Assembly: GCA_963665235.2 (NCBI GenBank) | Contig: CAXXLX010000002.1 | Location: forward strand, 384,001-448,000 | Reading direction: 5' to 3' | Source: Candidatus Poribacteria bacterium | GTDB taxonomy: Bacteria > Poribacteria > WGA-4E > WGA-3G | DNA: 64,000 bases | Part shown: positions 44,447 through 49,297 of the stretch, in pieces | How the letters are laid out: every line of letters starts with the position of its first letter | Numbering within the stretch: position 1 is the first letter of the stretch | Notes under the pieces: model-generated | Told to the model about the DNA's origin: nothing | The model's input: only the letters and a program-made list of their open reading frames with translations | Database searches by the model: none | Position numbers and translations under genes: made by a program

Positions 44447-44540
44447 GCGTCAAACAGTTCTCCATCTTTTTTTGAAAAATAAAACAGTTTTTAATATCGT
44501 AACATTTTTGACGAATTTTGTCAAGGAAAAAAATATTGTG

Positions 44541-45035
44541 GGGTGCGTAAAGTTTTTGTACAAAACAGGTGTAAATGTTACACTTTTGACACAAAGTGTA
44601 ACATTCAGTTTTGGGTTCTGAACTCCCTTGAACGCAAGCCCTGTCTATGTTTCAAGCGGTTTCGACCCATTTTTTCCCAGCACAAAAAAAACGTGTTGTG
44701 TCATTTCGACTGCCGGTTTTCGGGTATCTGTCCTGCCTACTTTTCTTACCGTTCTGCCCGAAAAATGTTTTGGTTTTCTGTTATATTATACCATTTTTAT
44801 TAATTATTCTATCATTACCGGTTGTTAGAAATGAAACGGAGAACGGAAGACCCAAACTAAAAGTTTATGCTACAAGAAAGCACACAAACTGGAAGTTTAT
44901 GCTACAAAAAACAACACAAACTGGAAGTTTATGCTACAAGAAAGAGACATTTTCAATTAGAAATGGTATTAGTTGCGAACTGTTTGATTTTTCTTCATAA
45001 AAAATATCGCAGCCGTACAAAAACTTTACACACCC
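44541..45035. mobile_element. 495-bp MITE with 21-bp TIRs and 9-bp target duplication, containing a nested MITE (44789-44968)
   Basis: GGGTGCGTAAAGTTTTTGTAC / GTACAAAAACTTTACACACCC; AATATTGTG at 44532-44540 and 45036-45044. Confidence 0.85.
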
Positions 45036-45057
45036 AATATTGTGAAGGGGGGCAGAG

Positions 45058-46254
45058 CTAAACCCATCCTGCAGAGATGAGATGGCGAAGTTCAAGGAGC
45101 AAGCTAGGTTGATGCCTTAGCACCGTTTGGAAAATCTTTCCTAACGTTATCTCTTCGCTGGGGAGTTTAGAGAGGACTTCTGCGTATCCATCAAGCGTTT
45201 CGTCTGAAATAAATTTGAAAATACCATCTCGGATGCGACAGATATGCTTAAAATGTCTACCAATTTCACGGTCCCAACGTTTTGGGTATGCGCTGAGAAC
45301 TTTTTCGGAGACATCCCCGTTACGAATACCAGCCAGTGCAGCTTCAGCAGCGAACTTTCCCGAGTACATCGCGTTAGGAATACCGCCGCCAGATACCGGG
45401 TCGCTGTGATGTGCCGCGTCCCCAACGAGCAGAATGCCGTCTCGGACAATCCGCGGCAAACCCTCTCCAACTGGCACTGCACCGCCCACTAATCCTAAAA
45501 TTCTACCTTCAGGAAACTTCCGTTTGACGAACGCGTTCAGGTAATCTATGGCGAGTTTACCCCCTTTGCCCGAAATATTCGCACGAATGCCAACCCCAAC
45601 GTTAGCAATGTCATCCCCTTTTGGAAACACCCAAACGTACCCAAGCGGGGCAACGTCGCGTCCGAAGTAAAAATCACAACACTCCGGTATAATATCAATG
45701 TTTGACATGAGATATTGAGCACAGGGGCCGATATCGCGTAGTTGGTGGGTTGTATCGATACCTGCCCATCGTCCCACCTGGGATTCAACGCCATCCGCCG
45801 CAATAACCACCTTCGTTTTGCTAGTGTACTCGCGGCCTGAATAACGGAACACGACACCGTTCACAGCTCCGTCATCAGCGGTTGTGACATTTGTGACACG
45901 TGCTTTCACCATTAACTCAGCCCCAGCATCTGCTGCCATCTCCGCAAGCCGGCGGTCGAACACTTTCCGCTCTAGCACATAGCCTGCGTCTGGACAATCA
46001 ATTGTGACAGCAGTCTCGTTGGGTGAGATGATACGTGCGCTGCTTATGCCACAGGATATCCAGGCTGCTTCGGGCTCAATAAATTCGCGCAGAGCCTCTG
46101 CGCTAATACCCTCCGCTCAGCGGAGCGGCACACCTATTTCTTGGCGTTTCTCTAGCAGCAGCACCCGCAATCCGTTTTCAGCGGCAACCTTTGCAGCGAT
46201 GGAGCCTCCTGGGCCCGCGCCAACAACAATGACATCGTATTCCGCATGTAGCAT
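45058..46254 (-). CDS. geranylgeranyl reductase (DGGGPL reductase-like) with in-frame UGA (candidate selenocysteine, residue 46; 398 aa)
   Basis: [12 protein letters not shown]...EIGVPLR-TGA-AEG, in frame with [22 protein letters not shown]; GGAG RBS. Confidence 0.85.
46087..46103 (-). promoter_or_regulatory. candidate SECIS hairpin
   Basis: GCGCAGA-GGC-UCUGCGC, 13 nt after the UGA. Confidence 0.6.
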
Positions 46255-46299
46255 TTATCACTTCTCCACAAGTTAATATTAGGGGACGCAGCAGGGTCT

Positions 46300-46518
46300 T
46301 CAGAAAAGGCCTCGGTCCGGATAATCGGGATAGTAAATCTTGCCTTTGCGTTCCATGGAGAGCACACCGATTGGACATCCCTTGACACATTTCATACAAT
46401 CGGTGCACTTCGGTTGGTCAATTTTCAGATGCGTGTCTATCAGGTCAATGATATTTTCGGGGCAGACAGCGACGCATGCGCCGCAATAGACACAGAGCTC
46501 TTCGTTAATATGAATCAT
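46300..46518 (-). CDS. 2x[4Fe-4S] ferredoxin
   Basis: CVYCGACVAVCP and CTDCMKCVKGCP. Confidence 0.92.
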   Translation of the reverse strand: MIHINEELCVYCGACVAVCPENIIDLIDTHLKIDQPKCTDCMKCVKGCPIGVLSMERKGKIYYPDYPDRGLF

Positions 46519-46631: not shown

Positions 46632-48254
46632 TTAAGGAGCCTTCAGGAGATAGAGGTGGAAACCTTCATCCCCAATCGTTGAACCTGTAAACTGTGCTAA
46701 CAGTGTGAGACCATATTGCTCAAGCAGCTGGGAGTCTAAAGCACGATTCAAAATAATTAGCACGTCTTCGCCGTTTTGTCCGCTTAGGGTTTCAGCTTCT
46801 TGGATAATACCTTCGTTGGAAACGCCGTGTGTTCTCGCTCTGTCCCATCTGACAAATGACCCGAATCGGCTGCCTTTCGGATAATAAATCTGCTTCTTCT
46901 CTAGATATCCGACAACAGTGCTAACAGCAAAATCTGTGTCGCCGACCATCAGCATGTCTTGCCTGCCTTGTGCCCGAATATATTCAGCGGTCCGTTTTCC
47001 ATTAGAGAAAATCTCGAGGATATCCATACTGATAGCGTTGACGCTGCCGAAAAAATGAAAAAGGAGAATGACAGCAAAAATCGGGCTAAAGAGCCGTTGT
47101 GCGAATTCACTGAGTCGGTTGAAGGGTAGGTTTATTTCGGGGCAGTCATAGTAAATCCAACTCGCCGCCACAAATGTGATAAACAGGAAACCGTGATGCC
47201 GTATGCTGCCTCCATACTTGACGTAGAAGAAGGCGAGAAGTCCAATTGTGGCTATCAGATAGGTAAAAAGCGCAGTCGGACGTTTCAAAAATCGGAGGAC
47301 ACACCACACTATAATGAGACAACAGAGCGGAAACCGAATTAATTGAAAGAGGGCAATACTATTAAGCCAATTGCTACCCCAAAACCCTCTCACTGTATGC
47401 GGCACAGGGAAGAAAGGATTGGACATCAGACGGATAATCTGTTTCACACGTTGTCCGTCGAACCTAAAGTTCCAGCCGACAGCAAACCCGGTATCCGCAG
47501 GGGGATTGAGTTGCAAGACGGCTGTTACGATGCCGATGCCGATGAGTATAAATCCGAGCCAGATGCGTCTTCTCCCCTCGGTAAGCAGCTCATGTGCATC
47601 CCCCGCCTTGCAGCAGTAGAAATAGAGGTATTCTACCATGAGAGCAACCCCGATAGCGATGGTCACGATAAGGGCATGTACGCTTGTGTGGGCAAGTAGA
47701 ATTAAGACAATCCCTATCCATACAAATCGTTTATACCGTTCCCTGAAGAGGACGCAGAAAATAGTTATGAGAAGTAAACCGAGGGCATAATTTCGGGCGA
47801 CAATCGCATATTCATAGAGTGCAAAATAACCGAAACAGAAGAGAAGTTTGTGTAACCAATGAAACGGTGCGAAACGTGTAAATAGGAAAACTGTTGCAGC
47901 AGCAATTAGCAGGTGAAACGCCTGCATCATGACAGGTGAGGCACTGATACGGCTGAGTGGCATCAAACAGATATGCCATAAGGCGGGATGCCCTTCATAT
48001 TTCATATTTGCCAGAAGCTCAGAGAGAGACGCGCTATCTCTCGCGAGGAGCCACGCCTGAATTTCGTCTCGCCACATCTCATGGTGTGCCGCTGCGTACC
48101 CGCCGACAAGCAGAAAAAGAGCGGTCATCCCGATGGCGTAGTAGAAATCCTTTTTTGCGGACAGGTTTGACTGTACAGATTGTAGCAATTGAGAAAAATT
48201 TTGGAGGGTCATTGAGTGTTCTATTGCGTCCCTAAACTGGAAATGGGTATCCAT
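46632..48254 (-). CDS. polytopic membrane protein, GT-C glycosyltransferase-like
   Basis: HEMWRDE.QAW, YEGHP, ARNY; many TMs; start uncertain. Confidence 0.7.
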   Translation of the reverse strand: MDTHFQFRDAIEHSMTLQNFSQLLQSVQSNLSAKKDFYYAIGMTALFLLVGGYAAAHHEMWRDEIQAWLLARDSASLSELLANMKYEGHPALWHICLMPLSRISASPVMMQAFHLLIAAATVFLFTRFAPFHWLHKLLFCFGYFALYEYAIVARNYALGLLLITIFCVLFRERYKRFVWIGIVLILLAHTSVHALIVTIAIGVALMVEYLYFYCCKAGDAHELLTEGRRRIWLGFILIGIGIVTAVLQLNPPADTGFAVGWNFRFDGQRVKQIIRLMSNPFFPVPHTVRGFWGSNWLNSIALFQLIRFPLCCLIIVWCVLRFLKRPTALFTYLIATIGLLAFFYVKYGGSIRHHGFLFITFVAASWIYYDCPEINLPFNRLSEFAQRLFSPIFAVILLFHFFGSVNAISMDILEIFSNGKRTAEYIRAQGRQDMLMVGDTDFAVSTVVGYLEKKQIYYPKGSRFGSFVRWDRARTHGVSNEGIIQEAETLSGQNGEDVLIILNRALDSQLLEQYGLTLLAQFTGSTIGDEGFHLYLLKAP

Positions 48255-49297
48255 AATCCGCCGGTGCTGCGTGCGATAAATTTTTGGAACGGTTCATTAC
48301 GGCCGATAACATCCACCTGGATTTTGGCATCTTTTATTTTATTGTACACGTCGTTTGCAGCGTAAGACCCGCTGACATATTCGTCGGTGACTAAGATGAA
48401 ATGGAGTTTTGCATTTTGCCGTGGGGTGATTTCGTCAGCAGCTCGGACGAGGGCATCCATGGTTTTTTCGCCGCCGCGGCATTTCACTCTTGCAAGACTC
48501 CGTTTGATTTTTGCGACAGAACGGGTTTGCGGAATAACCTCAAAATCCCAACCCAGCATAGCGAACGCGGTACTATCCCGAAAAATCACGACACCGAGTG
48601 TAAAATCAAGCTCGGCTTCCTCAAATAGGTCGGTCATTTTATTCAGATAATCGCGGATTGCGTTAATATTATCTTTCATACTACCGCTGGCATCAATAAC
48701 GAAAACGATATCGGCGACCCCGGTGGTGTTGTTGGCTAAAATACGTTCTCCGATTCGCACCAATGCTATATCAGGCAGCATAAGTTCGCCTATATCTGGA
48801 AGGATATCCTCGACAGGGGGTTTAACCATCTGAAGTGTAACGCTAGGCCGATAAATCTTTTTTGGCACAAATTCACCTGTGCCTGATTCGCCACCGGCAG
48901 ACTCACTGGTTATGCTGGCCCCAGTACTTACCCCGGGTTTGCCAATCTCTGATACGCGCGGCGCGGGGAGCGTGAATCTTTGCTGTGGAAGCTCCGGATT
49001 TTCATGTGTGAAAGGGACGGTCGCTGGTGGGAGCGGAACCGGCTGAGCCACTGCTACCTGCCGCTGCCCGCGTTTCATTTTTACCGGCACTACTTCCGGC
49101 AGCGGACGCGGGTTATGCTTCGGAGTGAGTTTGGTGCGACGCTTCGGATAAATCTTTGTGATGTCAACGTGTGTCGTCCCTTCTTCCGGGCCAGGGTTCT
49201 TTTGCTGACTAGCCACCAATACAAACATCAGAACGATATGAAGAATAAACGAGAGCATAAGTGCAATTCGGGTGGATTTTCCAAATCTGTGTTTCAT
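48221..49297 (-). CDS. membrane-anchored vWA domain protein
   Basis: N-terminal S.ILH TM, Pro-rich linker, DIVFVIDASGSM, LVTDE. Confidence 0.85.
   Translation of the reverse strand: MKHRFGKSTRIALMLSFILHIVLMFVLVASQQKNPGPEEGTTHVDITKIYPKRRTKLTPKHNPRPLPEVVPVKMKRGQRQVAVAQPVPLPPATVPFTHENPELPQQRFTLPAPRVSEIGKPGVSTGASITSESAGGESGTGEFVPKKIYRPSVTLQMVKPPVEDILPDIGELMLPDIALVRIGERILANNTTGVADIVFVIDASGSMKDNINAIRDYLNKMTDLFEEAELDFTLGVVIFRDSTAFAMLGWDFEVIPQTRSVAKIKRSLARVKCRGGEKTMDALVRAADEITPRQNAKLHFILVTDEYVSGSYAANDVYNKIKDAKIQVDVIGRNEPFQKFIARSTGGLWIPISSLGTQ

Follow-up and report, generated by a model that had tools for sequence, protein, structure and literature searches.

A predicted selenocysteine-containing flavoenzyme of the geranylgeranyl reductase family in Candidatus Poribacteria

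A selenocysteine (Sec)-containing flavoenzyme of the geranylgeranyl reductase (GGR) family is very probably encoded in the genome of a Candidatus Poribacteria bacterium (assembly GCA_963665235.2), by a gene that lies in a stretch of 64,000 nucleotides (nt) of contig CAXXLX010000002.1 (positions 384,001 to 448,000; hereafter, the window). From comparison with related genes, we infer that the frame at 46254-45058 on the minus strand (window positions here and below) is full-length and functional, with Sec at codon 46. The conserved Cys beside the flavin in the GGR family is replaced at this position by an in-frame UGA, and the predicted Sec would serve as the functional analogue of Cys. The recoding is of the kind that operates in any bacterial selenoprotein gene and the enzyme family is well studied; it is the combination that is new, and the GGR family seems not to have been listed previously among selenoproteins.

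The reading frame extends from ATG 46254 to the TAG stop at 45060-45058 and is interrupted only once, at 46119-46117, by a TGA that is shown as an asterisk in EIGVPLR*AEG (Table 1). Only a 306-residue piece of the frame (45058..45978, minus strand) appears in the list of open reading frames (ORFs), whereas the frame with the TGA read through encodes 398 residues. An earlier reading of this DNA (the original prediction) had reported these coordinates, the 306-residue ORF, the single TGA, the 398-residue read-through product, and a hairpin 13 nt downstream, all of which are present in the sequence as given. The GGAG that precedes the ATG is a putative ribosome-binding site.

The read-through protein is assigned to the GGR family because it scores above the cut-offs of both TIGR02032 (geranylgeranyl reductase family; 241.5 vs. 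158.8 bits) and Pfam PF22578 (GGR_cat; 88.1 vs. 27 bits), and because residues 5-393 match residues 4-397 of the structure PDB 3OZ2, nearly the full length of the protein (E 3.2e-76). The motifs listed for GGRs in a review (GxGxxG, PxxYxWxFP, LxGD, and RxxxD; PMC10821996) are represented in the translation. Near the N-terminus is GAGPGG, the GxGxxG motif for binding flavin adenine dinucleotide (FAD), which exists in the product solely if the UGA is read through. Two motifs for FAD interaction, LLVGDAA (LxGD) and RKVFD (RxxxD), align with 3OZ2, as does PLGYVWVFP of the catalytic domain, the counterpart of PAGYIWVFP in 3OZ2.

Table 1. Positions of the reductase gene, its recoding elements, and the upstream ferredoxin gene in the window.
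Feature	Coordinates	Strand	Description
Reductase coding sequence	45058..46254	-	398 codons plus stop TAG; from sequence and read-through translation
Start codon ATG 46254-46252	46252..46267	-	GGAG at 46267-46264, 9-nt spacer
In-frame UGA, codon 46, predicted to be read as Sec	46117..46119	-	Aligns with flavin-proximal Cys of PxRC(A/G)EG
Bacterial SECIS-type hairpin	46087..46103	-	7-bp stem, triloop GGC, GCGCAGA-GGC-TCTGCGC
72-residue 2x[4Fe-4S] ferredoxin gene	46300..46518	-	Fer4_7, Fer4, and related models; upstream of reductase

In 3OZ2, the residue opposite the UGA codon is the Cys within PVRCGEG. The corresponding residue in the GGR of Sulfolobus acidocaldarius, Cys47, is described in a 2024 review as essential for catalysis and located beside the flavin (PMC10821996). 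In 61 related genomes, 26 orthologues of full length were found, at 68-100% identity; all 26 have a single TGA, located at the same codon. Across the phylum, 55 of the 176 genomes searched have a match. The TGA form is found in 39 of these 55, all of them in families f1-f4 of a single order and with 68-100% protein identity; 13 matches, in families f5-f11, are free of stops, and the remaining three are partial sequences from within the TGA order that do not cover the site. The 13 stop-free genes of sister Poribacteria lineages have TGT or TGC at the site without exception. With identical sequences counted once, the column of codon 46 comprises 39 loci with TGA vs. 60 with TGT or TGC (the 13 from sister Poribacteria and 47 from other relatives); nine loci (L074, L088, L101, L122, L123, L131, L138, L139, and L141) were not scored, as the motif pattern found no site in them. 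The next-nearest relatives (36-45% identity) belong to Ignavibacteria, Chloroflexota, ANME-1, methanogens, and Methanomassiliicoccales, and have Cys in all cases scored. An in-frame UGA that is aligned with Cys in homologues and conserved across orthologues is the pattern of a selenoprotein gene.

Sec forms were not found outside Poribacteria in the samples searched. A 301-genome sample of the phylum Chloroflexota gave eight matches, and 87 of 201 sampled genomes of the class that holds the Ignavibacteria relative gave matches, one of which carries a TAA close to its end; no TGA form occurred among these or among the 47 distinct loci scored from outside Poribacteria. As these are samples, Sec forms may occur elsewhere.

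The hairpin that begins 13 nt past the TGA resembles a bacterial selenocysteine insertion sequence (bSECIS). It is composed of a 5' arm (46103-46097), a loop (46096-46094), and a 3' arm (46093-46087), and the loop lies 20 nt from the UGA. When the 26 orthologues are aligned without gaps, the stem positions are paired in 97.1% of cells and three of the seven stem pairs show compensatory changes; the covariation score of the stem was reached by none of 500 shuffles, and sliding the partner columns as a control lowers the pairing to 10-60%. The compensation is not silent, in that GCA/ACA at codon 52 (Ala/Thr) co-varies with CGC/TGC/CAC at codon 56 (Arg/Cys/His); thus, pairing is preserved at the cost of amino-acid changes. 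All seven pairs are formed in 31 of the 39 distinct TGA forms and six of seven in the other eight, and the first loop base is G in all 39 (loops GGC, GTC, and GGA). At the homologous positions of the 60 distinct Cys forms, there are 0-5 pairs, mostly 1-2, and never six or more. The structure is therefore both supported by covariation and specific to UGA forms. Given the conservation of the TGA (26/26 orthologues; 39/55 phylum matches), the 97.1% pairing, and the outcome of the 500 shuffles, the TGA and its hairpin are more than a chance association.

The hairpin also fits the published bSECIS model, which specifies an apical loop of 3-9 nt, an upper stem of 4-16 bp, and 16-37 nt from UGA to loop (PMC13188914, Fig. 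2 legend), as well as G in the first two loop positions and a minimum free energy (MFE) of -7.5 kcal/mol or lower (PMC13188914). The Poribacteria element has a 3-nt loop, 7 bp, G as the first loop base, 20-nt spacing, and, for the hairpin alone, -9.9 kcal/mol. A second inverted repeat, CTCCGC-TGA-GCGGAG (46111-46125, minus strand), absent from the original prediction, forms a perfect 6-bp stem with the UGA in its 3-nt loop. As a functional element this repeat was rejected: its pairs show no compensation, shuffles score as high as the alignment itself, and many orthologues break the stem. The repeat probably arises from codon conservation across Arg-Sec-Ala-Glu.

Translation of the segment upstream of the TGA is indicated by its pattern of substitution. 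None of the 39 TGA loci has a stop in the 42 codons before the TGA, nucleotide diversity at codon positions 1/2/3 of this segment is 0.113/0.042/0.571, and the median pairwise ratio of nonsynonymous to synonymous substitution rates (dN/dS) is 0.042 (345 pairs). Contigs assembled from sequencing runs X5, X6, X7, and X9, which belong to two further studies, cover the site; every difference from the window lies elsewhere, so that the TGA is kept, and all five differences upstream of the TGA among these strain variants fall at third codon positions. These 42 codons are thus under strong purifying selection, which excludes a dead N-terminus.

These data bear directly on whether the TGA arose by nonsense mutation, or through an error of sequencing or assembly, such that the gene is a pseudogene or the residue is really Cys. 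Some copies within the order have truly decayed (G040, G145, and L082), and gene callers treat TGA as a stop: among the best 120 matches in the protein database, 63 are full-length proteins with PxRC, and the other 57, which are the most closely related, are entered as proteins that lack the N-terminus, with starts that vary downstream of the site. Such an origin for the TGA nevertheless has a negligible probability, in view of the recurrence of the TGA across four families (39 genomes; 68-100% protein identity) and in the four further runs, the stop-free upstream codons with their low dN/dS, and the covarying hairpin that is tied to the TGA; a systematic error common to 39 assemblies is excluded by their sequence divergence. 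As judged from these comparisons, the TGA at 46119-46117 is no error.

The genome encodes the machinery for Sec incorporation. Genes for selA, selB, selC (tRNA-Sec), and selD are all present, each above its family cut-off, with the tRNA-Sec (78.1 bits; ARAGORN call SeC(tca)) directly after selB (G000:C1:2393270-2395331). The selD gene, which lies outside the window (G000:C1:3841015-3841941; L019), has one in-frame TGA of its own, and its product is presumably a selenoprotein too. Among the relatives, selA was identified in 60 of 61 genomes, the single genome without it being 86% complete; thus, the Sec trait is general in the order and cannot separate carriers of the reductase from non-carriers. 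Sec-containing hydrogenases from Poribacteria, among nine phyla, are reported in a 2026 paper, so that Sec use in the phylum is already known.

An open frame alone does not name the residue that is inserted; near-cognate decoding, or a lineage-wide change of the genetic code, could in principle place Trp, Cys, or Gly at the UGA. This is very unlikely, as TGA is otherwise an ordinary stop in this genome: it closes nine of the 37 stop-to-stop frames of at least 250 codons in the window, and it terminates the adjacent ferredoxin gene, 45 nt upstream of the reductase ATG. Further points against a standard residue are that every homologue has Cys at this position, which makes a classic Sec/Cys pair, that the Sec machinery is complete, and that the downstream hairpin fits the bSECIS model.

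Termination at the UGA followed by a restart would instead make this a split gene, encoding a 45-residue peptide plus a C-terminal protein of 300-350 residues. In-frame downstream starts are indeed used by gene callers, which give products of 283-346 residues (and a single call of 398 residues, P0074). However, the called restarts vary between orthologues, with at least 10 different N-termini, and the conserved hairpin would be left unexplained. The 45-residue piece bears the GxGxxG dinucleotide-binding motif, which is nonfunctional apart from the rest of the Rossmann fold. The purifying selection on the N-terminal codons and the inconsistency of the downstream starts both argue against stop-and-restart, which is an exceedingly improbable arrangement.

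We therefore retain the reading of codon 46 as Sec, at the redox Cys of the family, as proposed in the original prediction. It is supported by the alternation of TGA and Cys at residue 46 (TGA throughout the Poribacteria order to which this genome belongs; TGT or TGC in the 13 sister genes and 47 other relatives), by a hairpin that is conserved together with the TGA (6-7 of seven pairs in the 39 TGA forms; five or fewer in Cys forms), and by the finding of all four sel genes that were sought. The possibility of an assembly error, which had been raised at the same time, found no support in the contigs of the four further runs from two other studies. The importance of the Cys for activity, stated in the original prediction, agrees with the review of the family (PMC10821996).

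Several observations weigh against the overall account of the gene and its product. The 60 nt from the UGA have an MFE of -19.1 kcal/mol and fold no better than shuffled sequences (z = -0.51; 55 of 200 shuffles at least as stable). A search of 45900-46300 against Rfam gave no matches at E <= 10, the curated SECIS covariance models included; because bacterial SECIS elements resemble one another little (PMC13188914), this null result says little. Two of the four further runs, X6 and X9, are RNA libraries, and contigs from such libraries do not prove transcription. The gene is also dispensable, being present in 15 of the 111 genomes of family f1 and often lost, and three copies within the order appear decayed. 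Finally, the read-through protein falls short of the archaeal DGGGPL reductase equivalogs NF041160 (287.6 vs. 780), NF041080 (161.4 vs. 580), and NF041385 (88.7 vs. 700); it is therefore filed in the GGR family rather than as that specific enzyme.

A maximum-likelihood tree was computed from 94 sequences, of which 37 are intact Sec forms, 11 are Cys forms from Poribacteria, and 46 are others. All 37 Sec forms constitute one clade with a Shimodaira-Hasegawa-like approximate likelihood ratio test (SH-aLRT) support of 99; the clade is nested at the end of a series of branches of Cys-form Poribacteria, and the tree requires no more than a single change of state. The tree was rooted on one outgroup row, and its interpretation does not depend on the root so long as this lies outside the Sec clade. 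This topology implies that Cys is the ancestral state, with a single Cys-to-Sec switch at the base of one Poribacteria order and inheritance through families f1-f4. Sequences left out of the tree were two decayed Sec copies (L051 and L082) and three cut by contig ends (L136, L153, and L154). As for the decayed copies, that of G040 (L048/L049) is split and has extra TGA and TAG stops, that of G145 (L051) carries one further stop, a TAG, and L082 is frameshifted.

The gene directly upstream of the reductase encodes a ferredoxin with two [4Fe-4S] clusters (Table 1), an arrangement shared by 22 of the 25 Sec-form loci compared and by 10 of the 13 loci from Cys-form Poribacteria. There are also many proteins in which a ferredoxin and a reductase are fused (P0082-P0121): these are of 460-510 residues, Cys-type, and 50-55% identical, with the 2x[4Fe-4S] domain at the N-terminus, and one is named from Poribacteria. 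The reductase of Methanosarcina acetivorans is reported to need a neighboring ferredoxin (PMC10821996, citing Ogawa et al., 2014). From the synteny, the fusions, and the M. acetivorans case, we infer that the ferredoxin reduces the FAD of the Poribacteria enzyme.

Of 38 Sec loci, 26 have a gene of the PcrB family (GGGP synthase) within 1500 nt of the reductase; it follows on the same strand, some 70-330 nt downstream, and scores above the cut-off of the GGGP synthase equivalog TIGR01769 (210-226 vs. 161.55). At locus L077 (486-4515) the order is UbiA-UbiA-ferredoxin-Sec reductase-GGGP synthase, and a similar cassette is found at L069:2283-4501; the best matches of one of the L077 UbiA proteins are DGGGP synthases. 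Most carriers have a cassette of DGGGPS-like UbiA, ferredoxin, Sec reductase, and GGGP synthase, which is broken up in the lineage of the window; in the genome of the window, GGGP synthase and a DGGGPS-like UbiA are encoded elsewhere, on contig 1. The cassette amounts to a set of ether-lipid genes of archaeal type within a bacterial phylum. The substrate of the reductase is most likely a prenyl-glycerol-phosphate ether lipid, at about an even chance, because reductases of the GGR family are promiscuous (PMC10821996).

A genuine Sec enzyme could instead act on the menaquinone side chain, a polyprenol, or free geranylgeranyl diphosphate, to which we assign a likelihood a little short of even. 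Consistent with such substrates are the promiscuity of the family, just noted, and matches of the protein to MenJ (78.8 bits) and BchP/ChlP (158.3 bits), which are weak and both below cut-off. The genomic context points partly in the same direction: GGGP synthase is not in the flank at 12 of 38 Sec loci, including the window lineage (genera g1, g3, and g6 of f1), where the reductase gene is not beside it; the DGGGPS-like UbiA proteins are under the cut-off (L077: 226.6 vs. 296); and glycerol-1-phosphate dehydrogenase was not found in the genome with PF13685, which is no proof of absence. On the other side, the best matches of the reductase are archaeal DGGGPL reductases, GGGP synthase is directly downstream in the 26 Sec loci mentioned above, and the DGGGPS-like UbiA is upstream in L077. 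The single PF13685 match in the genome was considered as a glycerol-1-phosphate dehydrogenase and rejected; the model also matches 11 of 14 control genomes, and NCBIfam identifies the protein as a generic iron alcohol dehydrogenase.

The other neighbors in the window (a 442-residue ORF, a PP-loop ATPase, peptide deformylase, a 540-residue ORF, and a von Willebrand factor A protein) are not conserved as neighbors of the gene across the 25 Sec and 13 Cys loci; thus, they offer no functional clue. The 540-residue ORF (46632-48254, minus strand) has no Pfam or NCBIfam match and overlaps the end of the von Willebrand factor A protein gene (48221-49297, minus strand). The reductase stop is separated from the peptide deformylase gene by about 600 nt (44447-45057), which contain nothing but short ORFs of the opposite strand.

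We propose that the UGA of codon 46 would be decoded as Sec by SelA, SelB, SelC, and SelD of the same genome, as directed by the 7-bp hairpin with its G-first triloop 13 nt downstream. The selenol would take the place of the conserved Cys thiol beside the isoalloxazine ring of FAD, to which the upstream 2x[4Fe-4S] ferredoxin would pass electrons. The enzyme would then saturate polyprenyl C=C bonds, most likely those of ether lipids made by GGGP synthase and the DGGGPS-like UbiA, and the selenolate may tune or relay the flavin redox chemistry better than a thiolate. It is tempting to extend this proposal to the whole Poribacteria order, such that it makes saturated archaeal-type isoprenoid glycerol ethers with a selenium-dependent enzyme and the ancestral UbiA-ferredoxin-reductase-GGGP synthase cassette constitutes one pathway; this wider proposal is tentative, and we regard it as rather less probable than not.

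The role of the flavin-adjacent Cys in GGRs is merely "speculated" upon in the review of the family (PMC10821996), and a selenol is more nucleophilic than a thiol and has a lower pKa, as is established chemistry (see also PMC11431864). The replacement of Cys by Sec, and its maintenance in four families, speak for a part of this residue in redox or nucleophilic chemistry, and the Sec and Cys forms provide a natural pair for enzymology. If the wider proposal on the order holds, the swap from Cys would show that the flavin-proximal Cys of GGRs is a redox-active or nucleophilic catalyst and not a passive proton donor. The reductase would in that case also be the first selenoprotein of membrane-lipid biosynthesis, and the membrane chemistry of sponge symbionts would be linked to the selenium available to them. 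More generally, the prokaryotic selenoproteome would gain both an enzyme family and a process, the saturation of isoprenoids and lipids. The annotation is corrected as well, since public protein sets hold fragments that lack the FAD site (57 of the best 120 matches). The conserved neighbors, as archaeal-type ether-lipid genes in Poribacteria, bear on the debate over the "lipid divide."

With regard to novelty, Table 1 of PMC13188914 (May 2026), which covers 119 prokaryotic selenoprotein families and subfamilies, contains no geranylgeranyl reductase and no entry for TIGR02032, PF22578, or PF01494. The word "geranylgeranyl" is absent from the available text of that paper, of the deep-Sep paper (PMC12013277), and of the GOS survey (PMC2398784). 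Searches of full-text literature for "geranylgeranyl reductase" together with selenocysteine or selenoprotein returned no such enzyme as judged by title and abstract, and in NCBIfam release 20.0 no selenoprotein-specific model matches the reductase. The original prediction had named no earlier description of this family as a selenoprotein, which agrees with the 119-family table and the direct literature searches. The family is unlisted in the main texts of the selenoprotein surveys; supplementary tables (e.g., PMC12013277 Table S2) may list a generic "FAD-dependent oxidoreductase."

Among characterized proteins, the DGGGPL reductase of Thermoplasma acidophilum (3OZ2) is homologous over the full length, and shares the FAD-binding N-terminus, the PxRCxEG site, YxWxFP, and LxGD; it is archaeal, and has Cys where the Poribacteria protein has the UGA and predicted Sec. 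The T. acidophilum enzyme uses nicotinamide adenine dinucleotide phosphate (NADP) as reductant (PMC10821996), whereas the Poribacteria gene is paired with a ferredoxin. The GGR of S. acidocaldarius (3ATQ/3ATR/4OPC and related entries) belongs to the same family (E ~2e-26), and its Cys47 corresponds to the position of the predicted Sec, although it is more distant, has 453 residues, and carries Cys at the site. For the GGR of M. acetivorans, the requirement for a ferredoxin encoded at the same locus mirrors the ferredoxin-reductase pair of Poribacteria and the fusions; this likeness is by description rather than sequence, and the M. acetivorans enzyme is archaeal with Cys at the site.

The recoding signal is comparable to the bSECIS of the Escherichia coli fdhF type, in that a hairpin lies directly 3' of the UGA within the coding sequence and has a first loop G in a G[G/U]N loop; the 20-nt spacing and 7-bp upper stem of the Poribacteria element fall within that model. 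It differs in being a minimal triloop with no evident bulged U and no sequence similarity. Two bacterial FAD selenoenzymes in Table 1 of PMC13188914 likewise have Sec in place of a redox-active Cys near the flavin, decoded by bSECIS elements. Those enzymes are of the pyridine-nucleotide-disulfide-oxidoreductase type and perform thiol, disulfide, or sulfide chemistry, whereas the Poribacteria enzyme is of the GGR type, has the predicted Sec motif PxRUAEG (U, Sec), and, by analogy with its family, would reduce unactivated C=C bonds.

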